In this document: in pieces, positions 13,071 to 63,098 of the stretch
Layout of the letters: each line of letters opens with the position of its first letter
How positions within the stretch are numbered: position 1 is the stretch's first letter
DNA from: Candidatus Spongiisociaceae bacterium
GTDB taxonomy: Bacteria; Actinomycetota; Acidimicrobiia; Spongiisociales; Spongiisociaceae
DNA length: 64,000 nt
Assembly: GCA_965202675.1 (NCBI GenBank)
Contig: OZ241842.1
Coordinates: 323,188 to 387,187, forward strand
Reading direction: 5' to 3'
Position numbers and translations under genes: made by a program
Notes under the pieces: model-generated
Seen by the model: only the letters and a program-made list of their open reading frames with translations
What the model was told of the DNA's origin: nothing
Database searches by the model: none

Positions 13071-13250
13071 CCACCGGTTGGGCCTTTGCCGTCCTGTACG
13101 GCCAGTTCGTCGGGCAGTCCATTGCCCGCTGTTTTTTTGTGGGCCCGTCGGTTGGGCCTTTGCCGTCCTGTACGGCCAGTTCGTCGGGCAGCAGTCCATT
13201 ATCCGCTGTTTTTTTGCGGGCCCGTCGGTTGGGCCTTCACCGGGTCAGCC
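13071..13250. repeat. ~75-bp tandem direct repeat (2.3 copies) containing hairpin GCCCGC-TGTTTTTTT-GCGGGC
   Basis: Units at 13071-13144, 13145-13221, partial 13222-13250; near identical. Confidence 0.7.
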
Positions 13251-13354
13251 CCAAACACCCCAACCACCCCTGCAGGACCTTCTGTGAACCCCGGTCAAGC
13301 CCCTCTCCCACCCCAAGACCCCAAGCCCTCTTCCCACCCCAAGACACCCGGGCA

Positions 13355-13591
13355 AGAACGCGAAAAAAGCCGCCCCCTCGCCCCGCTTCACGGGCCCGGC
13401 CCCCACCTCCGCCACCTGGATTCCGGACGCGGTCGGTCAGTACCCCGGAGGGCCGCGTTCGGAAGATGATCCCTGTCACGGTCTGCGCCGGCTGCGGACC
13501 GGAGGTGCTTTCGGCTCCTCCATTGATACAGCATCGGTGCGACAAGGTCAATACCCTTGTGCGGGATCCGGCGGGATTTTTTTGTCATTCC
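13355..13591 (-). repeat. promoter-bearing repeat element, variant family, copy 5 (~90% identical to 52906-53140)
   Basis: AGAACGCGAAAAA...TTTTTTTGTCATTCC boundaries; internal GGTATTGACC-N17-TATCAA on minus strand. Confidence 0.7.
13516..13551 (-). promoter_or_regulatory. sigma70-like promoter TTGACC-N17-TATCAA reading toward MerR gene
   Basis: -35 rc at 13546-13551, -10 rc at 13523-13528. Confidence 0.45.
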
Positions 13592-13642: not shown

Positions 13643-14140
13643 TCAGGTGCGGAAGTCCTCCGGGGTGAGGTCTTCGAGGAATTCCTTGAAGCGCTCCACC
13701 TCGGCCTCCTGGGCCTCTTCGTCGTTCTCGTCCCTTATCTGGATCCCGGCGCTGTCGAGCACCTCGGGGGTGGCGTAGAGGGGGGCGCCGGTCCGGGCCG
13801 CCAGGGCTATCGCGTCGGAGGGGCGGGAGCTGACATGCATCTCCTCCCCGTTCCGGCTCAGCACCAGATCGGCGTAGTAGACGTTGTCCCGCAGCTCGGT
13901 GACGGTTACCCGGTCGACCCGCCCCCCCAGCATCTCGGTGGTGATGCGGAGCAGGTCGTGGGTGAAGGGGCGCGGGGTGGACACCCCCTCCAGGGCGTAG
14001 GCGATGGCGGTCGCTTCCATCCTCCCGATCCAGATCGCCAGATAGCGCCGCCCCCGGGCTTCGCGGAGCAGGACGATGGGCTGCTGGGTCGGGTACTCGA
14101 TCCGCACCCCGATCAGATCCATAGGAACCACATCGCTCAT
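13643..14140 (-). CDS. bifunctional nuclease family protein (DUF151)
   Basis: 165 aa, conserved in actinobacterial garA neighbourhood (Rv1829-like). Confidence 0.7.
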   Translation of the reverse strand: MSDVVPMDLIGVRIEYPTQQPIVLLREARGRRYLAIWIGRMEATAIAYALEGVSTPRPFTHDLLRITTEMLGGRVDRVTVTELRDNVYYADLVLSRNGEEMHVSSRPSDAIALAARTGAPLYATPEVLDSAGIQIRDENDEEAQEAEVERFKEFLEDLTPEDFRT

Positions 14141-15410: not shown

Positions 15411-16164
15411 CGATGAGGGTTTCCACCTCCGCGGCGAACAGCAGCTCGGTCAGCCGCATCACGGCTTCGGCGTTGCGGCTCAGGGCCTGGGCGGCCCGGC
15501 GGCGGACCTCCGGGTAGCGGTTCTTGTGGATGTCGACGTTGAGGCCGGCCAGCATATCCAGATGGCGGACCACGGCGTGGCGGATGGTGCGCAGGTGCCG
15601 GGGTTCCAGGCCGTGCCGCAGCAACAGGCTGCATTGACGGGCGATGGCGGCGTCCCTGGTCCCGAATCTGGCCGCCCCGTCCACCTCCGCCGGCCTGACC
15701 AGCCCGTGGTCGATGAGACCCCGCACCTGCTCCCTGGTGAGGTCGGCCCGGCGCGCCAGCTCGTGGATCTCGAAGACCTCCTCGTATTCCTCCTCCCCGG
15801 TGTCGGGGCCGTCCGCCTGCTGCGCCGGGGAGCTCTGCCCGGGGGTGCCCTGCACGGGCGGAGCGCCCTTCTGCGGCGCCCGGGGTTTCCTGTCCGGCCT
15901 GTTCGGCGCCTCTCCCCGGTCCCAGCGCGCCAGCTGCGACTTGATCACCTTGAGGGGCAGGAAATGGTCCCGCTGCCGGCGGAGGATGAACTGCAGGCGT
16001 TCGACGTCGGCGGAGAGGTACTGCCGGTATCCGGAGGACGACCTCGACGGGTTGATCAGTCCCTGGGTTTCGAGGAACCGCACCTTCGACATGGTTACAT
16101 CGGGAAACTCGTGCTTGAGCAGGTCGGTCACCTCCCCGATGCTCAGGGCCGGGGGATCCGTCAT
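15403..16164 (-). CDS. MerR family transcriptional regulator (FtsR / Rv1828-like)
   Basis: HTH LSIGEVTDLLKHEFPDVTMSKVRFLETQGLI; ATG at 16164 overlaps garA stop; long upstream ORF extension rejected. Confidence 0.75.
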   Translation of the reverse strand: MTDPPALSIGEVTDLLKHEFPDVTMSKVRFLETQGLINPSRSSSGYRQYLSADVERLQFILRRQRDHFLPLKVIKSQLARWDRGEAPNRPDRKPRAPQKGAPPVQGTPGQSSPAQQADGPDTGEEEYEEVFEIHELARRADLTREQVRGLIDHGLVRPAEVDGAARFGTRDAAIARQCSLLLRHGLEPRHLRTIRHAVVRHLDMLAGLNVDIHKNRYPEVRRRAAQALSRNAEAVMRLTELLFAAEVETLIDG

Positions 16165-16583
16165 CGCCCTTGGGTTACCAGCAGATGGAACTTCCCGATC
16201 ATCAGCCGGTCGCCGGAGGTCAGCCGCGCCTCCTCGACCAGCGTTTCGTTCACGTAGCTTCCGTTGGTGGAACCCAGATCTTCGAGGATCAGGCGCCCGT
16301 CGGAATCGAGCAGCATCCGGCAGTGGCGCCGGGAGACGGTTATGTCGTCGAGGGTGATGTCGTTGGACGGATGCCGCCCGATCCTGGTGGCGCCGGGCGA
16401 AAGGCTCCACTTGCGGCCGGCGTGCATGCCCCGCTGCACGGTGAGCGTGTACCCCGGCAGCTCCTCCGCCGAATCCTCCGGGCCGGGCCCGGGCTTCGTC
16501 GACCACCCCGCCTCCTCGGCAGGGTCGAAGATCATGGTCGCTTCAAATTCGTCCGAATGCCGAAGCTCGTCTCGACCCATCAT
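16161..16583 (-). CDS. garA: FHA domain protein GarA/OdhI-like
   Basis: C-terminal FHA motif GRHPSNDITLDDITVSRRHCRM...GSTNGSYVN; 140 aa. Confidence 0.8.
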   Translation of the reverse strand: MMGRDELRHSDEFEATMIFDPAEEAGWSTKPGPGPEDSAEELPGYTLTVQRGMHAGRKWSLSPGATRIGRHPSNDITLDDITVSRRHCRMLLDSDGRLILEDLGSTNGSYVNETLVEEARLTSGDRLMIGKFHLLVTQGR

Positions 16584-16691
16584 GACCTCCTGTCCGGTTC
16601 CGAGTGTAGTTGGCCCGCCGCGGCTGCGCCCCCTGTTTTCGCCGGCGCCCGCCGGCGTTCTGCCCGCCGGCGCCCCGGGTCTTGCTCCGGC

Positions 16692-17321
16692 CTACTCCCG
16701 GCGCTGATCGCGCAGGGTCGGGCTGCGGCGCATATCCCCTATATATTGCCAGGTGACCGCCAGGTACAGCAACAGGCCCGCCCCTCCCGACCAGGCGCCG
16801 AGCCCCTGCCAGAGGCGGGGGTTGGTTCCCGCCGCCGCCAGGTAATAGAAGGGCACGGCCGCGAACACCAGACCGGTGGCCAGCTTGCCGATCCACCTAA
16901 CCTTCACCTTGAGGTTGAACCTGAACAAGAAGTATAGGGCCGCCGCCCCCACCGCCGCCTCCCGGGCCAGCAGCGGCCACCCCAGCCATCCCGGGACCAC
17001 CCCGGCCAGGAGGCCCCCCGCCACCGAGGCGAACACCACCAGGCGGTCGGCGAGCGGGTCGAGGAACTTGCCTATCTCCGAGACCTGGCCGAGCTGGCGG
17101 GCCAGCACCCCGTCCAGGTAGTCGGTCAGGGCGGCGGCGGCCAGCAGCCAGGCGGCCAGGCTGTAGTCCTCCCGCCCGAGCAGCACCCACAGGAACACCG
17201 GAACGGCGGCGATCCGCAGCGCCGAGATCAGGTTGGGGATCGTCCACAGCCCCGCGTCGGGCCCGGTTGCTTCCGGTCGGCCGGTCGGCTTGCTTCTCAG
17301 CCGGGCGCTCCTTTTTTCCAT
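16692..17321 (-). CDS. pgsA: CDP-alcohol phosphatidyltransferase (phosphatidylglycerophosphate synthase-like)
   Basis: DYLDGVLAR...GKFLDPLADR CDP-OH transferase motif; multiple TM helices. Confidence 0.75.
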   Translation of the reverse strand: MEKRSARLRSKPTGRPEATGPDAGLWTIPNLISALRIAAVPVFLWVLLGREDYSLAAWLLAAAALTDYLDGVLARQLGQVSEIGKFLDPLADRLVVFASVAGGLLAGVVPGWLGWPLLAREAAVGAAALYFLFRFNLKVKVRWIGKLATGLVFAAVPFYYLAAAGTNPRLWQGLGAWSGGAGLLLYLAVTWQYIGDMRRSPTLRDQRRE

Positions 17322-19088: not shown

Positions 19089-20210
19089 ATGCCTCCGACG
19101 ACCGGGTCCGGTCCCCCCACGCCCCCCCGCCGGGGCAGCCCGCCCTCCGGTTCCCGCCGGCCCGCCAAGGTGCTGTTGGCCGAGCCGCGCGGTTTCTGCG
19201 CCGGGGTGGACATGGCCATCAAGGCCCTCGCATGGATGGTCAAGATATTCGACCCCCCGGTGTACTGCTATCACGAGATCGTCCACAACCGGTTCGTGGT
19301 CGAGGCCTTCGAGCGGGCCGGGGTGGTGTTCGTGGATTCGATCCGCCGGGTTCCCCGAGGCGCCCCGGTGATGCTGTCCGCCCACGGATCGGCGCCCGAG
19401 GTGGCGGACGGGGCGGCGGAGCGGGCCGGGGTGGTCATAGACGCGGTGTGCCCGCTGGTTACCAAGGTCCATCACGAGGTCAGGAAAGCCGCCAACCGGG
19501 GCTTCGACATCCTGTTCGTGGGCCACGAGGGCCACGACGAGGCGGTGGGCACCCTGGCGGAGGCCCCCTCGTCCATCACGCTGGTGGAGCCGGAGACCGG
19601 GCTGGCCGATTTCACCCCCGAGGACCCCGGACGGGTGGCCCTCTTCGCCCAGACCACCCTCGGCCTCCACGAATGGGAGGAGGTGCTGTCCGAGGCGTCC
19701 CGGCGCTACCCCGGCCTGGTGACCGCCCGCAAGAGCGACCTCTGTTACGCCACCACCAACCGCCAGGCGGCGGTGCGGGAGATGAGCGGGCGGTGCGACC
19801 TGATCCTCGTGGTGGGTTCGGACAACTCGTCCAACACCAGGGCGCTGGTGCGCACCGCCCGGGTGCTCGGCGCCCCCGCCCACCGGGTGGACTCGGCGGA
19901 CGCCGTCCGCGACGAATGGCTGGACGGCGCCGAGGTGGTGGGGGTGACCGCCGGGGCCTCGGCCCCCGACAACCTGGTGCGGGAGGTGGTGGAGCGCATC
20001 CGCCCCTCCGAGGGCTGGGAGCTGCTCCGCATCACCGAGGAAGACGAATACTTCCCCCTCCCCCGCCGCCTCCGATCCTTCCTCACCGCCCTCGAAGCCG
20101 CCCTCGCCCTCGGTTTCACCGCCCGCCCCGGCGCCCCCGGCCCCCTTTCCCAGGACCGCCAAGCCACCGCCGCCCGCGCCCTGTCCGCCCTGTCCGCCCC
20201 CCAACCCTGA
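19089..20210 (+). CDS. ispH: 4-hydroxy-3-methylbut-2-enyl diphosphate reductase
   Basis: VLLAEPRGFCAGVDMAI and conserved Cys ligands; start may lie slightly downstream of 19089. Confidence 0.85.
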   Translation: MPPTTGSGPPTPPRRGSPPSGSRRPAKVLLAEPRGFCAGVDMAIKALAWMVKIFDPPVYCYHEIVHNRFVVEAFERAGVVFVDSIRRVPRGAPVMLSAHGSAPEVADGAAERAGVVIDAVCPLVTKVHHEVRKAANRGFDILFVGHEGHDEAVGTLAEAPSSITLVEPETGLADFTPEDPGRVALFAQTTLGLHEWEEVLSEASRRYPGLVTARKSDLCYATTNRQAAVREMSGRCDLILVVGSDNSSNTRALVRTARVLGAPAHRVDSADAVRDEWLDGAEVVGVTAGASAPDNLVREVVERIRPSEGWELLRITEEDEYFPLPRRLRSFLTALEAALALGFTARPGAPGPLSQDRQATAARALSALSAPQP

Positions 20211-20317
20211 TCACCCTGTCCCCGCGTTTCGCGAAGCCTCAAATAATTCCCCGCTCTGCCCGCCCGCGTCCACTTCGTGTTCTATAATCCACCCGGATGG
20301 GTGGCAGGAGCTGAGAC

Positions 20318-21007
20318 GTGATAGATGAGGGTACACAAGAGCGCCTGCTGGAGGCGACCAGACAATTTTGGTCTTATCATGTGACGACCGATGAGTTTCA
20401 GAGTCTCGCATCCGGCAAAGAGATCGGACACCGTATCGCCGACTATGTTGAAGAACACACTGTTGGCTTGATCGATGCAGAGTTTTCGACCGGGTATCAA
20501 CTGAAAAGGGATGGACAACGGGCGGCTCGAGGAATGGGCGACGTATGGGTCAAGTCCAATGACATCTTCAATCCGATTAATATAAAGTCCGGAGAATTAT
20601 TCAAAAAAGGTCAACCCAACATGGTATCTCTCAAAAAGCTTCTACGCGGTGTGCTTGAAAGAAAGATTGACTCCTATTACCTGCTCATAGTAAAATTTGA
20701 TCCGATAAACAAACGGGCAGATATAAATTTGGTTGATCTTCTAGACTATCTGGATTATACACATTTTGATTCAGGACCGGGGCAGATAATGCTCCGCGAG
20801 CGAGACTTCTATGAGGTTCTTGATTCCGATTATGAACCACCGCTCTTGACGTTACGAGAAAAGGTGGATATCCTCTTGAAAACACTACAGGAAGGCGACG
20901 AGAGACTGCAAAAGAACCGCGAAAAGGCACAAAAAGAGCTTATGGGACTGGCAGAACAGTTTGACATTGAAATGCCGATCAACCAGCAATCTCTGAATAT
21001 CGGATGA
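20318..21007 (+). CDS. hypothetical protein; candidate restriction endonuclease partner of downstream methyltransferase
   Basis: 229 aa, AT-rich codons, stop overlaps MTase start by 4 nt; no confident nuclease motif seen by eye. Confidence 0.45.
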   Translation: MIDEGTQERLLEATRQFWSYHVTTDEFQSLASGKEIGHRIADYVEEHTVGLIDAEFSTGYQLKRDGQRAARGMGDVWVKSNDIFNPINIKSGELFKKGQPNMVSLKKLLRGVLERKIDSYYLLIVKFDPINKRADINLVDLLDYLDYTHFDSGPGQIMLRERDFYEVLDSDYEPPLLTLREKVDILLKTLQEGDERLQKNREKAQKELMGLAEQFDIEMPINQQSLNIG

Positions 21008-22656
21008 GCCAGGCAAAAGATAAGCGCGTTCCGAAACGGCAGAAGGGGCAGTTTCTTACCCCTCAGCCTCTGGCGCTGGACGTACTGTCCGATATCGAGT
21101 TCAAAAGAACCGATCGTGTACTCGAGCCGGGCTTTGGAGAGGGGTCCTTTCTCCTTCCCTTGATTGAGGCATTTCTGGAACTGTATGATGGTCCGACTGC
21201 CAGCCGACTCGACCATATATTGAACAACAATGTTTGGGGTGTCGAGATAGACCCTGCTATGTATGACAAGGCCCTTTCGAATATTGAAGAAAGAATAGCT
21301 CCACTTCCTGCTTCACATAATCTTTTACTAGAAGACTATTTTGAAACAACTTTTGATAGTAATACTTTGCGCTCTGATTTCGCTAGCGGCTCATTTCGGT
21401 CCAGCCTGGACTTTACGCATGTTATCGGCAATCCACCGTTTGGCGGAACAATTGCGTCCTATTTACAGGATTCACTCGACAAAGTGCTTGGTTGGCGTCA
21501 TGGAATAAAGATCAAAAAGGAGACCTACGCTTGGTTTATAATAAAGAGTCTAGATCTATTAGCGGATGATGGAATACTCAGGTTCATATGCAGTGACACC
21601 TTTCTTACGATATATACAATGCGCGGCCTTCGCAATGCTTTGGCGCTGGAAGGACAACCCACTGTATGGCCACTCAATAAATTTTCGGAAGAAACTTCTT
21701 ATCCGATGGTAGTTCTCGATTGGGTAAAAACAGGCTCTGCAGACCACGTACTAATAGATGGAGATCCTATACCTATTACAGATATTGAGCGGACTGCCAA
21801 TCTATCTTGGGGGTTGAATCGAGACATGGTTCCATATTTTCAAGGGCCGTCCCTCGGTGAATTCATGGTTGCGACGAGTGGAATGACAACAGGAAACAAT
21901 TCTCTGTTTATACGTGAAGTTCACGATAATATTATTTCAGAACCGTATGAGTTCACTTTTGAGGAGGCGCCGATTACTTTGGGCAAAGAGATACAGCGAG
22001 CAAGACTGGGCCGCTTATCTGCCAAAAGGATAAAGCAAATCAAAGAGTTGGAAAAACAAGGAAAGACCAGGCGTGAGCTGAAACCCCTTAGATTGCCTTC
22101 TCCTAACGTTATCGACCTGCCGAACGAAGACTATCTGCCTTATAATAAAGCTACCGGCAGTCTTGTATACAGTCGTCCTACTCACTATATATATTGGAAA
22201 GATGATGGAGATGCTGTTCTGACATATAAGAAAACCGGCAACTGGTATCTTCATGGAATAGGAGGCGCCAAGTATTTCGGCAGAGAAGGTTTGACCTGGC
22301 GGCTGATCTCTGGCACTCTCGATGTCAGATACCTTCCTACAGGATACATACTCGACAGCGGCGCTCCTTGCGCCTTCCCGCGTCCTGGAGTATCGCAAGA
22401 AGAAATGCTGTTCATCATGGGATGGACGCTGACCGACAAATGTACTCAGATCCTCAAGCAGGTCATAAACCATACGATGAACATTCAAGGCAAGGACTTC
22501 GAGCGGTTGCCGTACCCCTTTTGGGTAGGCAGCGACGAACGCTCCGAAGCAGTATCGTTGGTTATGAGTATGCTCGATGAAGGTTTCGATGGGCGTCAAT
22601 TCTCAAGACAGGACCCGGAGTTCGATGCTTTGGAATCTCTATTCAGGATGGCATAG
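21004..22656 (+). CDS. N6-adenine-specific DNA methyltransferase (gamma-class, TaqI/Eco57I-like) with C-terminal target-recognition region
   Basis: Motif I VLEPGFGEGSF, motif IV IGNPPFGG; 550 aa; very low GC relative to genome. Confidence 0.8.
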   Translation: MSQAKDKRVPKRQKGQFLTPQPLALDVLSDIEFKRTDRVLEPGFGEGSFLLPLIEAFLELYDGPTASRLDHILNNNVWGVEIDPAMYDKALSNIEERIAPLPASHNLLLEDYFETTFDSNTLRSDFASGSFRSSLDFTHVIGNPPFGGTIASYLQDSLDKVLGWRHGIKIKKETYAWFIIKSLDLLADDGILRFICSDTFLTIYTMRGLRNALALEGQPTVWPLNKFSEETSYPMVVLDWVKTGSADHVLIDGDPIPITDIERTANLSWGLNRDMVPYFQGPSLGEFMVATSGMTTGNNSLFIREVHDNIISEPYEFTFEEAPITLGKEIQRARLGRLSAKRIKQIKELEKQGKTRRELKPLRLPSPNVIDLPNEDYLPYNKATGSLVYSRPTHYIYWKDDGDAVLTYKKTGNWYLHGIGGAKYFGREGLTWRLISGTLDVRYLPTGYILDSGAPCAFPRPGVSQEEMLFIMGWTLTDKCTQILKQVINHTMNIQGKDFERLPYPFWVGSDERSEAVSLVMSMLDEGFDGRQFSRQDPEFDALESLFRMA

Positions 22657-22799
22657 GGAGCGCGTATCCGTAATGGAACCCCAATTTTCGCCTTGCCGGT
22701 CATACCCCAAGCCCCCCAGTATTACAGATTCTTGCGGCCCCGGTCCAACTTCGAATCATTCCCGGAAGCTCCCTGGCGAACACATCCCGTGAACCGCCG

Positions 22800-23051
22800 A
22801 GAACGCGAAAAACCTGCGCCCCCCCGCCCGGCTCCGCCGGGCACCCTCCCCCGCCGCCACCGCCAGCCATCGGATCTCCGCCTGGACGCGCCGCCCCTGT
22901 TCGGGCGCCGGCGCCCGGCCTGACAAGATTCCCATGATGACCGCCGCGCACTCCGGAACCCGGCGGCGGTGTTTGTGTGTCAGCGAACACATAGTACCGC
23001 AAACCTATGACAGAGTCAATACCCTCATCATAGAACGCTAAAAATAATTCC
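22800..23051 (-). repeat. promoter-bearing repeat element, copy 2
   Basis: AGAACGCGAAAAA start, AAAAATAATTCC end, core identical to copy 1. Confidence 0.75.
22984..23019 (-). promoter_or_regulatory. sigma70-like promoter TTGACT-N17-TACTAT (reads toward 3' end of MTase gene, convergent)
   Basis: -35 rc at 23014-23019, -10 rc at 22991-22996. Confidence 0.45.
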
Positions 23052-23143
23052 GGTCCGGGCTGCCCGGCCTCCTGCGCGCAACCCCCGGAATCCGTCTGCC
23101 GAGGCCGGCGCGGCGGCGCGGGGACCCTGCTTCCATCTGCAGG

Positions 23144-51360: not shown

Positions 51361-52148
51361 GAAACCACCCGGACGGCCCGCTCGGCGGCGGCCGCCACCT
51401 CCTCTTCGGGCGCTTCCTCGAGGCCCGCCTCGGTTACGGTAACCACGTTCGGGTAGATGCCGCGCCGGAAGTCGGGTCCGCCGGTGGCCAGGTCCTGCCC
51501 GGACGCCGCCACCAGAGCCTGCATGGCGTGGTCGACGGCCCGGCCCCGGTCGGAGCCGGGGCGGTAGACGGTGCGCAGGTAGGCCCGCGCCTCGCGGCTG
51601 CCCGACCCCGCCGCCCCGAAGTCCTGCTCCTCGTACCGGCCCCCCACCGCATCGAAGGTAAACACATGCCCGGTCCCGGCCGGCGGCTCGTACCCGCAGA
51701 AGATCGGTACAACCAGGAACCCCCGAAGGGCCAACGGCAGATGCATGCGCACCATCCGGGCCAGGTAGGTGGCCTTCCCGTCCAGGCTGAGGCGCACCCC
51801 CTCCAGCTTCTCGTAGTGCTCCAGCTCGGTCTGGAACAGCCTGACCAGCTCGATCGCCAGACCCGCCGTGCCGGAGATGGCCACCGCCGAGTAGGCGTCG
51901 GCGGCGAACACCTTCTGGATGCGCCGGTGCGACACGTCGTATCCGGCCGTGGCCTGGCGGTCGCCCGCCATCATCACCCCCCCGTCGTAGCGCAGGGCCA
52001 GCACGGTGGTGGCTTCCGGAGCGGCGACGTTCGAGGGTCCGGCCTCCGCCGGAAGGTCCCACCGGGGGGCGAGGTCGAGGGAGCGGGCCAGCTCGGTGAA
52101 GCCGGCCCCGGGATAGGGCTCGCCGTACGAGAGCAGGGCGCCGTTCAC
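51357..52148 (-). CDS. prcB: proteasome subunit beta
   Basis: Propeptide then TTVLALRYDGGVMMAGD (catalytic Thr), GSGS; GTG start overlapping pup stop. Confidence 0.85.
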   Translation of the reverse strand: MNGALLSYGEPYPGAGFTELARSLDLAPRWDLPAEAGPSNVAAPEATTVLALRYDGGVMMAGDRQATAGYDVSHRRIQKVFAADAYSAVAISGTAGLAIELVRLFQTELEHYEKLEGVRLSLDGKATYLARMVRMHLPLALRGFLVVPIFCGYEPPAGTGHVFTFDAVGGRYEEQDFGAAGSGSREARAYLRTVYRPGSDRGRAVDHAMQALVAASGQDLATGGPDFRRGIYPNVVTVTEAGLEEAPEEEVAAAAERAVRVVS

Positions 52149-52330
52149 TCCCCGCCTTTCTGCACGTAGTTCTTCACGAACTCCTCGGCGTTCTCCTCGA
52201 GCACCGAATCTATCTCTTCCAGCAGGTCGTCGATCTTGGCGATCGAACCGGCGGCGCCCGACGGCGGCGGCCCGGCGCCCGATGTTTCCTCGCGCTCGGT
52301 GCGCCTTCTGGGCAGACGCTCTTGGGCCAT
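52145..52330 (-). CDS. pup: prokaryotic ubiquitin-like protein Pup (C-terminal GGE)
   Basis: 61 aa, ...IDDLLEEIDSVLEENAEEFVKNYVQKGGE. Confidence 0.85.
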   Translation of the reverse strand: MAQERLPRRRTEREETSGAGPPPSGAAGSIAKIDDLLEEIDSVLEENAEEFVKNYVQKGGE

Positions 52331-52905
52331 ATCTCCTCCTAACGGGAACCCGGGCGCACCCCCGGCAGGGGCGGCCCGGCGGGTCCGTAAATCGTCGGCG
52401 CCGCCATGATAATCGGGGCCGCCCGGTTTTCAGGAGACATCGGCGGCGGATGCTCGCGCCGCCGCCGGTGATTTCGGCGCCGGCCGGGCCGGGAACCCGG
52501 AATCGAGGACCCCGCCGGGGTTGCCGCCGATCGGGGCGCGGCGCGCGCGGACAGGAAAGCCGGAAGGCGTTCGGCGCAAGCAGCTGTTGGACGCTCTGCC
52601 CGATGAGCACGGTCGGCCGGGCGCCGCCCCCGCCGACGAAACGGCGAAGGCAACCCCATCCGCGCATCCTCTTGCAAGCGCAGCACCCTTCAGCAGAGCT
52701 CGGGGGCCTTTCTGCGAACCCCCTGGTCAAAACCCCTCTCCCGCCCCCACCGATCTGCTGGACAATGAACCCGCCTCCGGGCCTTTTCTGCGAACCCGCC
52801 TGTCAAACCCCTCTCGCACCGGCTTCCGCCCAGGTCAACCCCCAGGCAACAGATGCTTTCTGCGAACCCCTGGTCAAGCCCCTGCCCCGACCCCGGACCC
52901 CGGCC

Positions 52906-53140
52906 AGAACGCGAAAAACCCCGCCCCGCGCCCCGCTTCGCGGGCCCGGCCCCCACCGCCTCCACCAGATGTCCGGACGCGTTCGGTCAGTACCCGGCAG
53001 GTCGCGTTCGGAAGATGATCCCTGTCACGGTCTGCGGCGCCTGCCGACCGGAGGTGCTTGCGGCTCTTCCATTGATACAGCATCGGTGCGACATCGTCAA
53101 TACCCTTGTCAGGGATCCGACGGGATTTTTTTGTCATTCC
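52906..53140 (-). repeat. promoter-bearing repeat element, variant family, copy 6, inside a ~780-bp dop-pup intergenic insertion
   Basis: ~90% identical to 13355-13591; left flank 52690-52905 carries three CTTTCTGCGAACCC motifs as in 12975-13300. Confidence 0.7.
53066..53101 (-). promoter_or_regulatory. sigma70-like promoter TTGACG-N17-TATCAA reading toward pup-prcB-prcA
   Basis: -35 rc at 53096-53101, -10 rc at 53073-53078. Confidence 0.45.
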
Positions 53141-54635
53141 GTGATTTGTCCGGACCGCCGGCGGCCTCACCCAGGGCTTCGAGCAGGTCGACGGCTTCCC
53201 CGGCGGCGTCGAGCAGCCCTCCCACCAGCTCCGCGCTGCCCCGCAGGGGTTCCTTCATGGGCACCCGCTTGAGGGTCTCCCCCCCGATGTCGAACACCAG
53301 GGAGTCCCAGTTGGCGGCGACCAACGATTCGGGGAACTGCCCCACGCACCGCCCCCGGAAGTAGGCCCTGGTGCCGGCGGGCGGGTGCAGGGCGGCGCGG
53401 TCCAGCGCCTCGTCGGTGAACAGGCGGCGGAGCAGCCCGCCCTCCTGCAGGCGGTAGGAGAGGCCCCGGGCGGGGTCGGTGTCGTGGTACTGGAGGGCGG
53501 CCAGGGCCAGCTTGGGGTGGCTCCATTCCAGGTCGTCGCGCCGGCGGAACCCGTTCAGCATGCGGAGCTTGGCCGACCAGTCGAGCCGGTCGGAGGTGCG
53601 CATGAAGTCGATCTCCAGGTCGTGGAGCACCGCCCCCCACTCGCGGATCACGTCGGCCCAGATCTCCCCGGGAAGGTGCTCGTCGGCGTACTTCGACAGC
53701 CGCTCGTGATACCGGAGCTGCAGCTCGAGGGCGGTGGCCGTCCCCCCGTCGGCCAGCCGCAAGGGCTCGGCCAGGGTGAGGTCGTGGCTGGTGCGCCAGG
53801 TCGCCTCCACCGGGTCGGCCAGGGTCAGGGGGTCGTGGACGGCGCCGTCCTCGACGGCCGCCAGCAGCAGGGCGGTTGCGCCCAGCTTGATGAAGGTCTG
53901 CACCTCCGACATGTTGGCGTCGCCGATGATTACGTGGAACCGCCGGTACTTGGAGGGCTCCCCATGGGGCTCGTCGCGGGTGTTGACGATGGGCCGCCGC
54001 AGGGTGGTCTCGAGACCCACCGCCTCCTCGAAGAAGTCGGCCCGCTGGGTGATCTGGTACCCGACGCCCGGACGTCCGTTCTCGGCGCCGAGCTTGCCCG
54101 AACCGGTGAATATCTGGCGGGTTACCAGCCAGGTGGTGGCGTAGCGGATGAGGTCGGCGAAGGGCGCGGCCCGCGAAACCAGATAGTTCTCGTGGTAACC
54201 GTAGGAGTTGCCCTTCCCGTCGCTGTTGTTCTTGTGTATGTACAGCTCCTCCTCCGGACGGAAGCCGCGGTACGCGGCGGCCGCGTCCGCCAGCACCCGC
54301 TCCCCCGCCTTGTCGTACAGTGCGGCCTGCAGGGGGTCGGAGCACTCCGGGCTGGAGTATTCGGGGTGGGCGTGGTCTACGTAGAAGCGGGCGCCGTTGG
54401 ACAGGACCACGTTGACCATGTTGTTGTTCGCCTCGGCGGGTCCGTACAGCTCGTACTCCAGGCCGCGGGCGTCCCGGTCGGGGGTTTCCTCGTCGTATGA
54501 CCACTGGACCCGCACCCGGTCGCCCCGGTAGGAGTTCACCACCCAGGAGGAGGCCAGGGTGGGGTGGAGGTCGGGGTTGTTGCGGACCGTGATCCCGTAT
54601 TCCGTCTCGGTCCCTATGACCGTGGGGACCGCCAT
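53109..54635 (-). CDS. dop: Pup deamidase/depupylase Dop
   Basis: MAVPTVIGTETEYG N-terminus, PafA/Dop fold; 3' end runs into repeat element. Confidence 0.85.
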   Translation of the reverse strand: MAVPTVIGTETEYGITVRNNPDLHPTLASSWVVNSYRGDRVRVQWSYDEETPDRDARGLEYELYGPAEANNNMVNVVLSNGARFYVDHAHPEYSSPECSDPLQAALYDKAGERVLADAAAAYRGFRPEEELYIHKNNSDGKGNSYGYHENYLVSRAAPFADLIRYATTWLVTRQIFTGSGKLGAENGRPGVGYQITQRADFFEEAVGLETTLRRPIVNTRDEPHGEPSKYRRFHVIIGDANMSEVQTFIKLGATALLLAAVEDGAVHDPLTLADPVEATWRTSHDLTLAEPLRLADGGTATALELQLRYHERLSKYADEHLPGEIWADVIREWGAVLHDLEIDFMRTSDRLDWSAKLRMLNGFRRRDDLEWSHPKLALAALQYHDTDPARGLSYRLQEGGLLRRLFTDEALDRAALHPPAGTRAYFRGRCVGQFPESLVAANWDSLVFDIGGETLKRVPMKEPLRGSAELVGGLLDAAGEAVDLLEALGEAAGGPDKSRNDKKIPSDP

Positions 54636-54637
54636 GC

Positions 54638-56413
54638 CTACAGGTACTGGCCGGTTCCGACCGCCTCTATGGTCCTCGACTCGTCCTCGCCCTCGATCAG
54701 GGTGCGCACGTAGACGATCCGCTCCCCCTTCTTGCCCGAGATCTTCGCCCAGTCGTCGGGGTTGGTGGTGTTGGGGAGGTCCTCGTGTTCCCGGAACTCC
54801 TGCTTGATGGCCGACAGCAGGTCGTTCAAGGTGATGCCGCCGGAGGCGCCGCCGATCCGGCGCTTGATGGCGTCTTTCTTGGCCCGGCGCACGATGTTTT
54901 CGATCATGGCCCCCGAAGAGAAATCCCGGAAGTAGAGCACTTCCCGGTCCCCGTTCTGGTAGGTGACCTCGAGGAAACGGTTGCCGTCGCTGTCCTCGTA
55001 CATGGCCTCGACCACCCGGTCGACCATCTGCTTCACCAGGGCCCGGCCGTCTCCCCCGGCTTTTTCCAGGGCTTGCTCGTCGTAGGGCAGGTCCGGGCTC
55101 AGGTAGATGCGGAAGATCTGCTTGGCGGCCTCGGCGTCCGGGCGGGCGATCTTGATCTTCACATCCAGGCGCCCCGGACGGAGGATGGCCGGATCGATCA
55201 GGTCCTCGCGGTTGGAGGCGCCGATCACTATGACGTTCTTGAGCTGCTCCACCCCGTCCAGCTCGGAGAGCAGCTGCGGGACGATGGTCGACTCCACGTC
55301 GGAGGAGATGCCGGAGCCCCTGGTGCGGAACAGGGAGTCCATCTCGTCGAAGAAGACGATGACCGGAACCCCCTCGTCGGCTTTTTCCTTGGCCCGCTGG
55401 AAGATCAGCCTTATCTGGCGTTCGGTCTCCCCCACGTACTTGTTGAGCAGCTCCGGGCCCTTGATGTTGAGGAAGTAGGAGCGGGCGTCCTCGTTGCGGG
55501 CACGCTCGGCCACCGCTTCGGCCAGGCTGTTGGCCACCGCCTTGGCGATGAGGGTCTTGCCGCACCCCGGCGGCCCGTAGAGCAGCACCCCCTTGGGGGA
55601 GACCAGCCCGTATTCCTCGAAGAGCTCGCGGTGGATGAAGGGCAGCTCCACCGCATCCCGGATCGCCTCTATCTGGTCCCGCAGGCCCCCCACCTCCCCG
55701 TAGGTGATGTCGGGCACCTCTTCGAGCACCAGCTCCTCGACCTCGGGGCGGAACAGCTTCTCGTAGGCCAGGCCGGTGCGGTTCTCCAGGAGCACGTGGT
55801 CTCCCGCCCGCAGATGGGTTTCCGACAGGGGGCCGGCCCGCTCCACCACCCGTTCCTCGTCGGTGTGGGCCAACACCAGCAGCCGGTTGTCCTCCATCAC
55901 CTCCTTGATGGAGACCACCTGGCCCTGGCGGGTGAAATCCCGCACCTCCACGATGGACATGGAATCGTTCACCAGCACCTGCTGGCCCGGCTGCAGCTGC
56001 TTGATCTCGATGGAGGGCGAGGCGTTGACCCGCATCCGGCGGTCCCCGCTCATTACGTCGACGGTGCTGTCGCTGTTGACCCCCAGCACGGTGGCGAAGG
56101 GGTTGGGGGCGGCGGTGAGCTTCTCGACCTCTTCGCGCATCATGGCCACCTGCTCGCGGATGTCCTCGATCACCTCGGTGAGTTTCCGGTTCTTGAGGCG
56201 GGCCTTCTCCAGCTGGGCCCTGGTTTCGGCCAACCGGGATTCCACCATCCTGACCGGGCGGGGTCCGGTCTGGAGCTGGCGGCGGAGCATCGCTATCTCC
56301 TCCCGCATGGCGTCCATCTGGCGCTGGTTGTCGTACGGCTGCCGCCGGCCGGACGCGGGTTCCATCCAGCGTTGGTAGTCGTACGGTTCCCGCTTGTCAG
56401 GCAACGGCGGCAC
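54638..56413 (-). CDS. arc: proteasome-associated AAA ATPase ARC/Mpa
   Basis: Coiled-coil, OB inter-domain, Walker [10 protein letters not shown]-terminal GQYL; N-terminal start uncertain. Confidence 0.9.
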
Positions 56414-56554: not shown

Positions 56555-57406
56555 TCAGGCCGGCCGGACGCAGCGCGCCGAGGTCACGAAGCCGGTATGC
56601 CCCACCATCCCGTGGTCGGGGCGCACCGAACGCCCGGTTACATTCCAGGTGCGGAGCAGCACCTCGAACGTCTCCACGTCGGCGAACCGGCCGCTGCCCC
56701 GGAGCGCCCTATGCAGCTGCTCGAGCTGGGGCACGGTGGGCAGGTAGCAGCACAGGACGCCGCCCGTGCGCAGGCCCCGCAGGGCGGGAATGACCACCTC
56801 CCACGGCTCGGGGATGTCCAGCACCAAGCGGTCGTGCTCGATCTCCGCCGCCGTTTCGGCCACGTCGCCCACCCGGAGATCCAACCACTCCGGCACCTCC
56901 CCGAAGCGGCGGACGACGGCGGCCCGGGCGTGGGCGGCGTGATCCTCCCTGATCTCGCAGGAGGCCACCCGCCCGGCCGGCCCCACCGCCCTGGCGAGGG
57001 TCATGGCCAGGGCGCCGGATCCGGTGCCGCCCTCGACCACGGTCAGGCCGGGGTGGATGTCGGCGTACATGAGAACGGCGCCCAGGTCCTTGGGGTAGAC
57101 GATCTGGGGGCCGCGCCGCATCTTGAGGAGGTAGTCCCCCAGCCGGGGGCGGAGGGCGGTCAGGGGCGCCCCTTTGGAGGACCGCAGGCGGGCGCCGTCC
57201 GGGGCGCCGATCAGCTCGGCGTGGGCCAGGGCGCCCAGGTGGTACTGGAACACCCCGTCCGCCCGCAGGTGGAGCAGGTACTTGCGTCCCTTGCCGTCGA
57301 TCAGGAGGACCGGTTCGCCCTCGGCCAGGGGGCGCCCCCGGGGCAACGGCGCATCGGACGACTCGGGCGGGCCGGGCGCGTCGGGCGGGCCGGGGGCGGC
57401 GGCCAC
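56555..57406 (-). CDS. trmI: tRNA (adenine58-N1)-methyltransferase TrmI-like
   Basis: SAM motif VVEGGTGSGALAMTLA; Rv2118c-like position beside arc. Confidence 0.8.
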   Translation of the reverse strand: MAAAPGPPDAPGPPESSDAPLPRGRPLAEGEPVLLIDGKGRKYLLHLRADGVFQYHLGALAHAELIGAPDGARLRSSKGAPLTALRPRLGDYLLKMRRGPQIVYPKDLGAVLMYADIHPGLTVVEGGTGSGALAMTLARAVGPAGRVASCEIREDHAAHARAAVVRRFGEVPEWLDLRVGDVAETAAEIEHDRLVLDIPEPWEVVIPALRGLRTGGVLCCYLPTVPQLEQLHRALRGSGRFADVETFEVLLRTWNVTGRSVRPDHGMVGHTGFVTSARCVRPA

Positions 57407-57678
57407 GATTCAGTCGAAGCCTATGGAGATGACGCCGGCCAGCAGGGTGAGGATCATGCCGGCCACGGTTACCCACACCACTGTCTGCACCCATCTCGGA
57501 GTCCGCCTCATGGGTATGCACTCTATAGCCTCCCGCCGCCGATCCCCCCGGCGGACGCCCGGGCGACGAACAACCCCCTTGCGACGCACCCATCCGGATG
57601 CGCAGTCTTGCGCTCAGTGCAGGAACCCGGCTGCGGCAAAGAACGGCAAAGAATTTTTCGCATTCCAGGATGAGGGTA

Positions 57679-57714
57679 TTGAACTTGTCATAGGTTTGCG
57701 GTACTATGTGTGCG
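57679..57714 (+). promoter_or_regulatory. sigma70-like promoter TTGAAC-N17-TACTAT
   Basis: -35 57679-57684, -10 57702-57707, predicted TSS ~57714 followed by hairpin GTGTG-CGCTGA-CACAC. Confidence 0.5.
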
Positions 57715-57887
57715 CTGACACACAAACACCGCCGCCGGAGTTCCGGAGCGCGCGGCGGTCATGATCGGAACCTTGTCTGTCCGGGCGCCGGCGCCCGGTG
57801 CAGGGCGGCTCGCCCGAGCGGCGGATCCGATGCCGGTGGAGGAGGCGGGGGAGGGTCCCGGCGCAGCCGGGGGCGGTGCGCCCGGAT

Positions 57888-57955
57888 TTCGCGTTCTCGA
57901 ATGGCGGGCGTTCTCGAATGGCGGGCGTTCTCGAATGTTGGGCGTTCTCGAATGC
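57888..57955 (+). repeat. 4 x 17-bp tandem iterons CGGGCGTTCTCGAATGG
   Basis: Direct count in sequence; derived from element terminal motif TTTCGCGTTCTCGAATGG. Confidence 0.85.
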
Positions 57956-58215
57956 CGGGGTCGGGTGAAGAAAAGGGCGCGTCCCGGATGAGGCGGTTCC
58001 GAGTGCGCACGGCTGCTGCGGAACGAGAACTCCCTGGGTTCGCGGACGACTTCGGGAGATGGACGGCTCCGGGATGCGTATGATTGCCGCGGCGGCGGGC
58101 ATTCCGCCCCGGTGTTGTTGATGATTCTGCCGCGCGGCGCGGCGCACGGCAACCAGAAGCGTTGCGCGCCTGTACCGGCAGTGCATACACCGGTCTACCG
58201 GTAGAAATGAGGAAC

Positions 58216-58431
58216 ATGTCGGGACGCAGACGCATCGGCTATGTCCTGCTGCGCCGCGGGCTGCGGAAGGGCAATGTCCTGCTCCAGGCGGCGGGGGCGT
58301 TCCTGATCCTGCTCCATTGGGCCAGGCGCCGCCGGGCGGCCGTTTTCGACCTGGAAGCGGGGCAGAAGGCGGGGCTGGCGGTCAACCGGCCCGGAGACGG
58401 CCCGATTGCCTTCCGCATAGAATCGGCCTGA
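58216..58431 (+). CDS. small hypothetical membrane protein (72 aa) downstream of repeat element
   Basis: GAGGA RBS before ATG; one TM helix; weak. Confidence 0.3.
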   Translation: MSGRRRIGYVLLRRGLRKGNVLLQAAGAFLILLHWARRRRAAVFDLEAGQKAGLAVNRPGDGPIAFRIESA

Positions 58432-61156: not shown

Positions 61157-62434
61157 ATGGAACTATTCGGCAAGCGGCCGCCCCGGAGATACGGGAGGAA
61201 CATAATCCCCCACGTGTTTCTCGGTTTGGCGGTCGCGGCGGTGATCGTGTTGATCTTCACCCGCGGGGGTTCCGATCAGCCCGATCCTCCCCCGGAGAGC
61301 CGGCCGGCCGCCGAGGCCGCCGCCCCGTCCTCCGTTCCGGGCAGCTCCGGTGCCGACGACGCCGTCCGGCCCGCCGCGTCGGACACCGCAGCCGCCGCCG
61401 GCGAGGGCCCCCCGGAAGAAGCCGAGGCACCCGTTGCATCCGGGACGACGGTTGTTACAACCGAGACGATTGTTGCATCCCCGGCGCCCGCGCCGGACGA
61501 GCCGGAGGAGGAAACCGCAGCGGTTCTGAGCGCGGAAGCCTCCCGTTACCTGCTCGGCCTGTCGGCGTTCCAGGCGGCGCTGGACGGGCTGGCGTCGGAC
61601 ATGGGCGCCGTCAACCGCTCCTGGGACGCCGAGAAGGGGGACGCGCCGGACGAGCAGAGCTACCGGGTCAGGTACAGGCAGGCCGAATCCGCCCTGGAGA
61701 ACATCCTCGACCGGGTGCGGGGCTTCCGCGCCGACGTACGGGCTCACCCGGTTCCCGCCCCGGTCGCCGAGCAGGGGCTGGCGCTGTCGGGGCTGGCCGC
61801 CGGGATGGTCGACTCGGCGGAGGGCGTACTGGCCGGGCTCCGCCGCCCCCGCCCCGACGACGGGTCGGCGCGCCGGGCCGCCCTGGCCGATTTCGAGGCC
61901 GAGGCGGCCGACTTCAGCCGCCGCGCCGCCGGCCTCGCCGTTCTCATCCAACAGAACGCCTCCGCCCTGGGGCTGACCGCCGCCGGCGCTGGGGCCGCCG
62001 CGGCGCCGGACGAAGCCGCGGCCGACTACTTGAGAGGCTTGGCGGATTTCAGGGGAGAGCTGGACGGGCTGGCGGCGGAAATGGGCGCCGTCAACCGGTC
62101 CTGGGACGCCGAGAAGGGGGACGCGCCGGACGAGCAGAGCTACCGGGCGAGGTACCGGCAGGCCGAGTCCGCCCTGGAGAACATCCTCAACCGGGTGCGC
62201 GGCTTCCACACCAGGGTGCAGGCCCATCCGATCCCGGCTTCGGTGCGGGCGACCGGGGCGGGGCCGGAGGCTTTGACCGCCGGGCTGGTCGACTCGGCGG
62301 AGGGCGTACTGGCAGGGCTCCGCCGCCCCCGCCCCGACGACGGGTCGGCGCGCCGGGCCGCCCTGTCCGATTTCAACGACGCCGTCCGGGAATTCGGCCG
62401 CAGGGTGGACGAGCGGGCGGCGGCTGCCGGCTAG
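61157..62434 (+). CDS. membrane-anchored hypothetical protein with internal ~150-aa duplicated module
   Basis: N-terminal TM (IIPHVFLGLAVAAVIVLIF), two near-identical modules MGAVNRSWDAEKGDAPDEQSYR...VDSAEGVLAGLRRPRPDDGSARRAAL. Confidence 0.6.
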   Translation: MELFGKRPPRRYGRNIIPHVFLGLAVAAVIVLIFTRGGSDQPDPPPESRPAAEAAAPSSVPGSSGADDAVRPAASDTAAAAGEGPPEEAEAPVASGTTVVTTETIVASPAPAPDEPEEETAAVLSAEASRYLLGLSAFQAALDGLASDMGAVNRSWDAEKGDAPDEQSYRVRYRQAESALENILDRVRGFRADVRAHPVPAPVAEQGLALSGLAAGMVDSAEGVLAGLRRPRPDDGSARRAALADFEAEAADFSRRAAGLAVLIQQNASALGLTAAGAGAAAAPDEAAADYLRGLADFRGELDGLAAEMGAVNRSWDAEKGDAPDEQSYRARYRQAESALENILNRVRGFHTRVQAHPIPASVRATGAGPEALTAGLVDSAEGVLAGLRRPRPDDGSARRAALSDFNDAVREFGRRVDERAAAAG

Positions 62435-62510
62435 ATGCGCAGTTCCTGCGCCCCTCCGCGCAGGAACCCGGCGGCGGCAAGAATATTTTTCGCGTTCCGG
62501 GATAAGGGTA

Positions 62511-62546
62511 TTGAATTTGTCGCAGGTTTGCGGTACTATGTGTGCG
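62511..62546 (+). promoter_or_regulatory. sigma70-like promoter TTGAAT-N17-TACTAT
   Basis: -35 62511-62516, -10 62534-62539. Confidence 0.5.
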
Positions 62547-62716
62547 CTGACACACAAAACCGCCGCCGGGGTTCCGGAGTGCGCGGCGGTCATCATGGGA
62601 TCTTTGTCTGTTCGGGCCCGGCGCCCGAACAGGGGCGGCATGCCACAACGACGGATCCGATGCTGGTGGAGGAGGCGGGGGAGGGTCCCGGCGCAGCCGG
62701 GGGCGGTGCGCGGGAT

Positions 62717-62815
62717 TTTCGCGTTCTCGAATGGCGGGGGCGGTCTCGAAGGGTGGGGGTGTCTCGAATGGCGGGGGGTGTCTCGAATGGCGGGGGGTGT
62801 CTCGAATGGCGGGCG
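62717..62815 (+). repeat. 5 x ~19-bp tandem iterons GGTGTCTCGAATGGCGGGG
   Basis: Direct count; variant of the 17-bp iteron in copy 3. Confidence 0.85.
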
Positions 62816-63098
62816 GGCGTTGGAGGAAAGGGAACGCGTCCGGATGAGGCGTTTCCAAAAGATGTGTGCGGTTGCTGCGGCCCGAGGACGCTCCTGGATG
62901 CTCGGAGGGGCGGGGATGAGCGGTTCCGGGGATGCGTATGGTCGGTTGCGGCGGCGGGCATTGCCCCCGTGCTGCCGATGATTTCCGCCGCGCGGCGGCA
63001 GCGCGTACGGTAGAAGTATCAACACACGGGATAGAGGGGCGGGTGCCCACGGACGGCGCAGGGCAGCCCCTGGGTCCCGGCGGGAACGGAGGCAGAAG

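Follow-up and report, generated by a model that had tools for sequence, protein, structure and literature searches.

What is a promoter-bearing repeat doing in six places within 64 kb of a bacterial contig? The question is raised by the segment at 57601-58215 (plus strand) of a 64,000-nucleotide (nt) stretch from Candidatus Spongiisociaceae bacterium, of the Acidimicrobiia (contig OZ241842.1, positions 323,188 to 387,187); this whole stretch, with 68.5% G+C, is called the window below. On balance, and with reservations set out below, we incline to see in the repeat a family of self-contained small-RNA (sRNA) genes that is specific to its lineage and has been amplified there, a reading drawn from sequence comparison.

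Copies were located with an nhmmer profile built from the six cores and run on the window. It matched exactly six full copies (E 1e-54 to 1e-76) and nothing further, at about the coordinates given in a preliminary description of this DNA:

57646-57905, plus strand: core match of the 57k copy, variant 1
62475-62735, plus strand, with repeats and tail to ~63030: 62k copy, variant 1
6932-7192, minus strand: 7k copy, variant 1
22793-23052, minus strand: 23k copy, variant 1
13347-13588, minus strand: 13k copy, variant 2
52899-53137, minus strand: 53k copy, variant 2, between dop and pup

The division into two variants proposed there is borne out by the identities within them, 82-87% among the four copies of variant 1 and ~87-90% between the two of variant 2. 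The longer extents given for two copies (57601-58215 and 62441-63030) also hold, because the homology that joins the 57k and 62k copies continues through their tails, over ~600 nt. The variants have in common the promoter block, GATCAT, a G-rich tract, a GGGCCC hairpin and an end signature, and differ in the middle. The repeat unit is ~250 nt long and oriented, its core being a single-copy unit at each site, and separate profiles of the 5' and 3' modules found no solo fragments in the window. A seventh copy, of variant 2, lies 9 kb upstream of the window in L019, a contig assembled at 406x coverage and 99.5% identical to the window's first 4.8 kb; it follows the yebC stop codon and is convergent with the next gene. 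Together with the six window copies this amounts to ~1 copy per 10 kb over 73 kb. We found no coding potential: reading frames are broken by 1-nt insertions or deletions between copies, as the earlier remark on non-conserved frames implied, and the frame of the GGN tract is not maintained. Rfam 15 gave no match at any window copy, whether the gathering threshold or E<=5 was applied, and a split copy from a relative had none either, in line with the earlier statement that no known Rfam family was recognized.

The 57k copy serves as the reference for the architecture of the 5' part and of the predicted RNA:

57601-57653, plus strand: upstream flank common to variant-1 copies, G+C-rich and hairpin-like, preceding the promoter (by homology)
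57654-57666, plus strand: 5' copy of the end signature, TTTTTCGCATTCC, or TTTTTCGCGTTC in the other variant-1 copies (by motif)
57679-57707, plus strand: sigma-70-like promoter (by sequence and block count)
57714-57900, plus strand: predicted small RNA of ~180-187 nt, 3' end uncertain (start placed by promoter geometry)
57728-57759, plus strand: hairpin H2, arms 57728-57735 and 57752-57759, with UCCGGA inside the loop at 57742-57747 (by MAFFT alignment A7)
57757-57834, plus strand: helix H3, 5' strand ~57757-57772 and 3' strand ~57822-57834 (by matched-partner duplex test)

The promoter-like block is the best conserved part of the family; GGTATTGAMNTTGTC occurs six times in the window against 0.17 expected. 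In the 57k copy, the -35 hexamer TTGAAC (57679-57684) and the -10 hexamer TACTAT (57702-57707) stand 17 nt apart, with AGGGTA conserved ahead; the 62k copy has TTGAAT (62511-62516) and TACTAT (62534-62539), and the 23k copy has TTGACT, the same spacer length and TACTAT, matching the consensus at nine of twelve positions. The geometry of -35, 17-nt spacer and -10 is constant in the diverged members found in relatives, even at ~60% identity. Homology of the 57k, 62k and 23k copies begins ~90 nt upstream of the -35 hexamer, and the 5' copy of the signature, present in variant 1 only, lies ~13 nt upstream of that hexamer, where variant 2 has a run of A.

The predicted RNA would start 6-8 nt after the -10 hexamer, near 57714, and its 5' end is conserved as GCYGNAAGCAC...CACCNCC. 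This placement bears on the GTGTG-CGCTGA-CACAC hairpin that had been described as lying downstream of the promoter. Its 5' arm falls between the -10 hexamer and the expected start site, hence upstream of the predicted RNA, and the hairpin is broken in copies w23 and L4a and absent from other variants. We rejected it as part of the RNA; it probably lies outside, and covariation support for it is lacking. The covariation check proposed for the hairpins came out in two ways, with none for GTGTG/CACAC and a clear signal for H2, a hairpin the preliminary description had not listed. The palindrome and the CCCGGC hairpin are nearly invariant across copies.

H2 was tested in a MAFFT alignment (A7) of the 5' parts, made without structural information, of ten sequences from three lineages (six of variant 1, with L9, L10, L7 and L6). 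Its helix of eight base pairs falls in identical columns in all ten, around the conserved UCCGGA loop, with arms that pair as ACCGCCGC/GCGGCGGU, AUCACCGC/GCGGUGAU or AUCGCAGU/ACUGCGAU. All 80 cells are paired and four of the eight pairs have changes on both sides. None of 500 shuffles reached this pairing or the covariation score, and controls slid along the alignment were only 20-70% paired. H2 is thus strongly supported by covariation.

Since MAFFT alignments of H3 across variants were out of register, this helix was examined by duplex energies instead, the duplex that each 5' strand forms with its own 3' strand being compared with those formed with 3' strands of other groups. In 10 of 14 sequences the own partner ranked first or close to first (L10, L15b and L7 being exceptions), which gives H3 moderate support. 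The helix has the cores AUCGGA (57764-57769) and UCCGAU (57826-57831) and closes a variable domain with the CCGGGCGCCGGCGCCCGG palindrome (57781-57798); a conserved linker of GAUCAU type runs ahead of it. Its central pair is G-C in variant 1, A-U in L9, L15a and L15b, and G.U in L4b. There are wobble changes, U.G in w7 (in both H2 and H3) and G.U in L4b and L10. On the opposite strand they would turn into A.C mismatches, and this strand specificity favors the promoter strand as the one read into RNA. At the H2 position, variant 2 and the L015 copies carry another local hairpin, CGGUCCG/CGGACCG, with conservation as its sole support. The conserved promoter architecture, the covarying hairpin, the strand-specific wobbles, the non-coding character and the absence of an Rfam match all speak for the multicopy sRNA gene that had been one of the original suggestions.

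The 3' part of the 57k copy continues as follows:

57835-57855, plus strand: G-rich tract GGTGGAGGAGGCGGGGGAGGG, of the form (GGN)4GGGGG (by alignments)
57857-57899, plus strand: 3' module, consisting of hairpin T1, a purine-rich segment and the signature (by folds and motif counts)
57891-57958, plus strand: four tandem 17-nt units, GCGTTCTCGAATGGCGG, beginning inside the end signature (by repeat families)
57959-58215, plus strand: non-coding tail up to a conserved open reading frame (ORF) of 71 amino acids (aa), 58216-58431 (by partial homology)

The G positions of the (GGN)4GGGGG tract are invariant in all family members and its N positions variable. Hairpin T1 (CCCGGC-GCA-GCCGGG, 57857-57871) is followed by the signature TTTCGCGTTCT at 57887-57897. 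T2, a predicted second hairpin with the U-run within its loop, would account for the conserved CGCGUUCU, and minimum-energy folds of most copies contain both T1 and T2. The signature TTTTCGCGTTCT occurs nine times in the window against 0.09 expected, always at an element: each of the six 3' ends has one, and the other three stand upstream of variant-1 promoters. Neither the window nor ~330 kb of related loci has it outside elements. In variant 1 the two signatures stand in direct orientation.

Beyond the signature lie tails that change quickly. The GCGTTCTCGAATGGCGG units, 17-19 nt long, number four in the 57k copy, about five in the 62k copy (62721-62815) and one each in the 7k and 23k copies, and their number differs also in the orthologous copies of the relative L004. 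The 57k tail has partial homology to the tails of two other copies (62k and 7k), and from strain to strain it is hypervariable. Tails cannot be aligned between the window and L004, a relative at 96% identity, while the core is conserved, which suggests that the core is more constrained. The 53k tail (~570 nt) has three GGTTCGCAGAAA units, and the 13k tail (~700 nt), which reaches to a MerR gene, has three GGTTCRCAGAA units and a duplicated stretch of ~75-80 nt. We rejected the idea that the tails are decayed second copies of the core, as local alignment scores equalled those of shuffled sequence. Some details of the variant-2 tails may be added here. Their three to four units GGGGCTTGACCAGGGGTTCGCAGAAAGG(CCC), often between short complementary G/C runs, lie at 12990-13290 and 52709-52868 in the window (both minus strand), at 3409-3420 in L019 and at ~380-590 (minus strand) in L025; they resemble the -35 half of the variant-2 promoter (GGGTATTGACCTTGTCGCA) and occur nowhere else in the window. 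The duplication of ~75-80 nt in the 13k tail, at 13090-13245 (minus strand), is a tandem one and reads GGCCCAACCGACGGGCCCGCAAAAAAACAGCGG.TAATGGACTGC..., and the plus strand of this tail looks like an intrinsic terminator, CGGGCAGTCCATTGCCCG followed by a run of T, at 13111-13128.

The repeated units could also be taken to mean that the family is mainly a DNA-level module that binds a protein, with sites for a regulator, a nucleoid protein or RNA polymerase that act as decoy or insulator. The sites in question would be the AGGGnnTTGAC..TGTCGCA block, the -35-like units of variant-2 tails and TTC-N2-3-GAA units in both kinds of tail. It fits this idea that variant-2 tails hold three to four GGGGCTTGACCAGGGGTTCGCAGAAAGG units resembling the variant-2 -35 half, and variant-1 tails one to five GCGTTCTCGAATGG units, motifs found nowhere else in the window. 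The tail units are, however, lineage-specific, hypervariable and absent from the diverged members of relatives; the arms of H2 are not symmetric about the UCCGGA palindrome, unlike a site for a dimer, and H2 covaries as a folded strand. We regard a DNA module as a long shot.

How the family is distributed among relatives is informative about its origin. Exact promoter-pattern scans of public genome and metagenome contigs gave only chance matches, and relatives were therefore reached through TrmI, whose gene adjoins the 57k copy, and their loci fetched; among the TrmI homologues, those with a named source are annotated as Acidimicrobiia. The dop-pup, 57k and 62k sites are occupied as well in relatives at 96-97% identity (L004, L025), and a strain at 97% TrmI nucleotide identity has four copies in 20.8 kb. 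In relatives at 73-79% identity these three sites are empty, with short intergenic regions: their dop-pup spacer measures 85-212 nt against 837 nt in the window, and the 62k site is an empty gap of 104 nt in L006 and L007. Some of these more distant relatives, at 76-79% TrmI identity, hold diverged members at other sites:

L007: diverged member just after the conserved small ORF (the window copy stands before this ORF)
L009 and L010: diverged members between pafC and tatA, on the opposite strand
L015: diverged member beside an EamA gene

No copy was found within ~16-21 kb each in L014, L017 and L018. L025 has in addition a variant-2 copy in the pgk-tpiA gap, antisense to both genes, and its dop-pup copy is interrupted by ~2.7 kb (14437-17170, with ORFs of 146 and 66 aa), the G-tract and T1 being lost or replaced. 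Taken with its version in L026, which adds an SLH-domain ORF, this insertion marks the spacer of dop and pup as a hot spot for insertions. In close relatives, short-read contigs stop within the element or beside it, as is expected of a multicopy repeat.

One further member is split. At 19538-20224 (minus strand) of L015, and identically at 10718-11404 of L016, the promoter-like block overlaps the start of a small ORF resembling an HNH endonuclease (CRRCG..EVDHV..NLQTLCRACH), apparently frameshifted, in an assembly of low coverage; a stretch of ~230 nt, richer in A+T and with long-range complementarity (GGGGGGTAACGGCCC...GGGCCGTTACCCCCC), comes before the element body. It may be an intron-like or homing-endonuclease insertion, and Rfam had no match for it. 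The window (4782-5514) also differs from L019 (13828-15782) by a replaced island that lies between the citrate synthase gene and an AAA_21 ATPase gene: L019 has a 513-aa ORF with a weak HNH match, and the window a 215-aa ORF beside the ATPase. Together with the small gene next to it, the ATPase has the look of a defence pair.

Where the copies sit relative to genes is equally telling. In six of the seven copies of the window and L019, the element begins 0-85 nt past the preceding stop codon, and the next gene lies 144-700 nt beyond (all loci), or 280-700 nt for the co-directional copies of the window. The 62k copy stands right behind the stop codon (62432-62434) of a gene for a 425-aa repeat protein and ahead of a pyridine-nucleotide-disulphide oxidoreductase gene that starts at 63099. 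The 7k copy begins 30 nt after the stop of thrS (7222-9231, minus strand), and the AAA_21 ATPase gene (5503-6657, minus strand) follows 283 nt beyond. The 13k copy comes after a bifunctional-nuclease gene (13643-14140, minus strand), and the MerR gene (12144-12653, minus strand) follows its tail. The 23k copy comes after the stop (~23144) of a gene that was recognized by eye as cytidylate-kinase-like, and it converges with a gene for a DNA methylase (21004-22656, plus strand). The 57k and 53k copies belong to a Pup-proteasome neighbourhood of actinobacterial type, with TrmI (56555-57406), mpa (54638-56413), dop and pup (52145-52330), the three with coordinates being on the minus strand. Here the frame of dop, the Pup deamidase gene, continues for 20 codons inside the 53k element's 5' flank, to a stop at 53109-53111 (the region concerned is 53109-53170, minus strand). 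Dop gains ~17 residues, since 20 new ones (EAAGGPDKSRNDKKIPSDP and then the stop, after ...LG) replace the last three of a protein that ends in ...LGGG in relatives; the same layout is found in L004.

Three of these neighbours deserve a word in their own right. The 425-aa protein (61157-62434, plus strand) has an internal duplication of ~160 aa (77% identity between the DNA at 61515-61814 and 61995-62294), has no Pfam match and is conserved beside a YgjP-like gene in relatives. The segment at 20500-22700, which the 23k element abuts, is richer in A+T, has many promoter-like matches and encodes an Eco57I/N6-methylase-type protein; it is probably a horizontally acquired restriction-modification island. 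The small ORF after the 57k copy (58216-58431, plus strand) encodes 71-79 aa, basic and with a hydrophobic stretch, at a position conserved across relatives; the element is upstream of it in the window and downstream in L007 (ORF at 9529-9768, minus strand).

Could the element instead be a mobile promoter donor, or a long 5' leader of attenuator or riboswitch type, that drives the downstream gene? The orientation of the window copies invites this idea, and the earlier observation that five of six point into a downstream gene is correct as to direction. Alternative pairings exist among the C-rich 5' segment, the 3' arm of H2 and the G-rich tract, and homologous promoters before non-homologous genes have already been described (PMC3488235). 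Yet the downstream genes, an ATPase, MerR, pup, the 71-aa ORF and an oxidoreductase, share no function and are reached across fast-evolving gaps of 280-700 nt, and the tails are long. Next to pup, moreover, a promoter-like TATCAT site is retained (~52406-52433), downstream of the 53k insertion, and the pup-proximal intergenic segment of element-free relatives resembles that of the window. Several copies, namely the 23k copy, the L019 copy, L7, L9/L10 and the pgk-tpiA copy of L025, are convergent with or antisense to their neighbours. Both a mobile promoter and a riboswitch or cis-acting leader were accordingly rejected, the latter also for want of an Rfam match; the promoter donor put forward in the preliminary description does not survive the comparison, and we consider this whole line of explanation quite improbable.

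A more serious rival, and the main one, is that the family is a selfish or neutral dispersed DNA repeat, non-autonomous and mobile or spread by recombination, whose RNA would have no function of its own; its promoter-like and hairpin features would serve propagation or insulation, through termination of the upstream gene or outward firing. Its strength lies in fast divergence, decay of copies and the unexplained end signature. Occupied sites differ between genomes, and short-read contigs break at the element. Positional orthologues differ by 12-13% (w57 against L4a, w62 against L4b), while for the TrmI gene next to them the difference is 3.5% over all positions and 5.6% over third codon positions, so that the orthologues outpace synonymous sites. 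L4a and L4b, at 90% mutual identity, are closer to each other than to their orthologues, a likeness within the genome that suggests gene conversion; divergence and likeness together point to fast evolution with exchange between copies. One copy, that of L025, is interrupted and partly deleted with no obvious harm. Insertions start at or just after stop codons, one of them extending the Dop frame, and TTTTCGCGTTCT marks the end of the unit, on both sides in variant 1, next to tails with a variable number of tandem repeats. On the other side, the copies have neither terminal inverted repeats nor target-site duplications in common, and no transposase or recombinase is linked to them. Promoter geometry is maintained over members only ~60% identical. 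Above all, the pairing of H2 stays perfect through about five independent double substitutions and the wobbles are strand-specific, which indicates selection on an RNA or single-stranded fold and not just on the ends. We judge a purely selfish repeat unlikely, though it deserves to be kept in view.

The best-known repeats of this sort have features that can be looked for. The preliminary description had thought of a Correia-like MITE (miniature inverted-repeat transposable element). The family is MITE-like in being multicopy, non-coding and present at sites that are occupied in some genomes and empty in others. A search for terminal inverted repeats in the six units and their flanks found no arm pair that copies have in common, one 16-nt pair flanking the 13k unit only, and the variant-1 signature is a direct repeat. 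No copy-specific direct repeats were seen at the borders, the position of which is approximate, since empty sites are found only in the 73-79% relatives, in which intergenic DNA is unalignable. With no shared inverted termini and no target-site duplication seen, we rejected a Correia-like MITE. A REP, BIME or REPIN element was rejected as well. Such elements are imperfect palindromes of ~20-40 nt that often come as inverted pairs and go with a RAYT transposase, whereas the present unit is ~250 nt long, oriented and promoter-bearing, and no paired inverted arrangement was found. We likewise rejected a structure like a transfer RNA (tRNA) or transfer-messenger RNA, for which the opposite strand offers CCACCA: ARAGORN and Rfam placed tRNAs only at 17388 and 26409, none at elements. 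The family is probably not phage-associated in IMG/VR, where the pattern of the 3' signature gave only chance matches among viral contigs.

Several observations weigh against our preferred explanation, sRNA genes, and should be stated together. The hexamers match the consensus at only eight to nine of twelve positions, and a promoter-scanning tool accepted the 23k copy alone, the others scoring 8/12, so that the earlier phrase of a near-consensus promoter was an overstatement. H2 is the one helix with clean covariation. Minimum free energies do not stand out from those of dinucleotide shuffles, with z-scores from +0.2 to +0.6 whichever strand is folded. A long-range helix between CACCNCC and the GGN tract, predicted by RNAalifold, was discarded, its register being inconsistent and its central position pairing in 5 of 13 sequences; covariation of T2 was likewise discarded, since its G-rich arms pair as well with non-cognate partners. 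The 3' end is undefined. A terminator-scanning tool made no call at any element end in the window, and a canonical hairpin with U6 is found only in the relative copy L7; elsewhere 13-18 nt separate hairpin and U-run, and the CCCGGCGCAGCCGGG hairpin of the earlier description does not directly adjoin the T-run. A simple sRNA gene also leaves unexplained the CGCGTTCT past the U-run, the long repeat-bearing tails and the second, upstream signature of variant 1. Finally, orthologous cores that diverge by 12-13%, against 5.6% at the third positions of TrmI, and the damaged L025 copy fit weak constraint, as in a selfish repeat.

Even so, we propose a model in which each core would be one transcription unit, with a sigma-70-type promoter (conserved AGGGnnTTGAnnnTGTC, 17-nt spacer, TAnnnT-like -10) driving an RNA of ~170-240 nt. 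This RNA would comprise, in order, the conserved 5' end, H2 with its UCCGGA loop, the GAUCAU linker and H3 around a variable domain, and then, in its 3' part, the (GGN)4GGGGG tract, a hairpin of GGGCCC type and a U-run with CGCGUUCU behind it. Copies would be duplicated at the DNA level, promoter and flanks included, into the space just after stop codons; those within one genome would exchange sequence, and single copies would decay. The RNA would most likely act in trans, as a regulator or as a decoy that binds a protein or the ribosome, through invariant unpaired motifs, with GAUCAU, the UCCGGA loop (a palindrome) and the (GGN)4G5 tract as candidates. The tract could be a G-quadruplex or a Shine-Dalgarno-like decoy. 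It is tempting to speculate further that we are dealing with a mobile unit of a new kind, non-autonomous, by which a whole sRNA gene would be moved without inverted repeats or target duplications and would home to the first bases after stop codons, with TTTTCGCGTTCT and/or the RNA being recognized by a recombinase, as in RNA-guided or hairpin-guided transposition; in this picture the tract could form a G-quadruplex and the loop could mediate kissing between copies. This we hold to be decidedly doubtful.

If transcribed, this would be a structured small-RNA family not described before, at very high density in one Acidimicrobiia lineage, one that is abundant and uncultured, with a genome of 3.0-3.2 Mb and 406x coverage in one sample. 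Small-RNA transcription units that have recently multiplied, and that stand at different sites in close relatives, would offer a natural system for the birth, copying and loss of sRNA genes, and would let one ask whether a whole promoter-RNA cassette behaves as a mobile element. On the practical side, the repeat breaks short-read assemblies of its host organisms, alters gene ends (Dop) and splits the dop-pup and pgk-tpiA gene pairs.

Among known systems, the closest in organization are families of sibling trans-acting sRNAs such as LhrC1-5, Qrr1-5, the csRNAs and RsmX1-5. These too have several paralogous genes per genome, each with its own conserved promoter and a hairpin-rich 3' end, and motifs common to the paralogs alongside variable internal parts. 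The present family is far denser (~1 copy per 10 kb over 73 kb), its sites differ between close relatives, and promoter, flanks and repeat-bearing tails are copied as a unit; it lacks a canonical terminator, and its RNA is a predicted one. MIRU-type minisatellites of mycobacteria are intergenic tandem repeats of tens of bases, variable in unit number, between operon genes. The likeness to them is limited to the tails, with their 17-19-nt units in one to five copies, whereas the core is single-copy and has a promoter and hairpins.

Correia elements (MITEs of Neisseria), RUP, ERIC and bcr1 are intergenic repeats of MITE type, which can carry promoter or terminator activity and can be transcribed (PMC3184786). 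Like them, the present element is small, non-coding, multicopy, intergenic and variable in site between strains. They are defined by terminal inverted repeats and target-site duplication, neither of which was seen here, and unlike Correia the present element is a complete, oriented unit from promoter to hairpin with a covarying internal hairpin. The Betaproteobacterial repeat element (BRE), which overlaps the sRNA genes bprJ1 and bprJ2 of Bordetella, is likewise a dispersed intergenic repeat found via an sRNA locus, with a copy number per locus that varies between strains (PMC3110155). Mobility is suspected for BRE with no mechanism known (PMC3110155), and the same can be said of the present family. 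BRE is ~90 bp long with no promoter of its own described (PMC3110155), whereas our unit is ~250 bp long with a conserved promoter; BRE comes from a different phylum and has no sequence relationship to it. Putative mobile promoters are homologous promoter-containing intergenic sequences beside non-homologous genes within a genome (PMC3488235). Here, in contrast, conserved and structured sequence with hairpins extends for ~180 nt beyond the promoter, any gene lies hundreds of bases further on, and several copies, being convergent or antisense, cannot drive a neighbouring gene. We therefore place the family, which is without the hallmarks of MITEs, in the broad kind of multicopy sRNA genes and transcribed intergenic repeats, whose general behaviour it shares.

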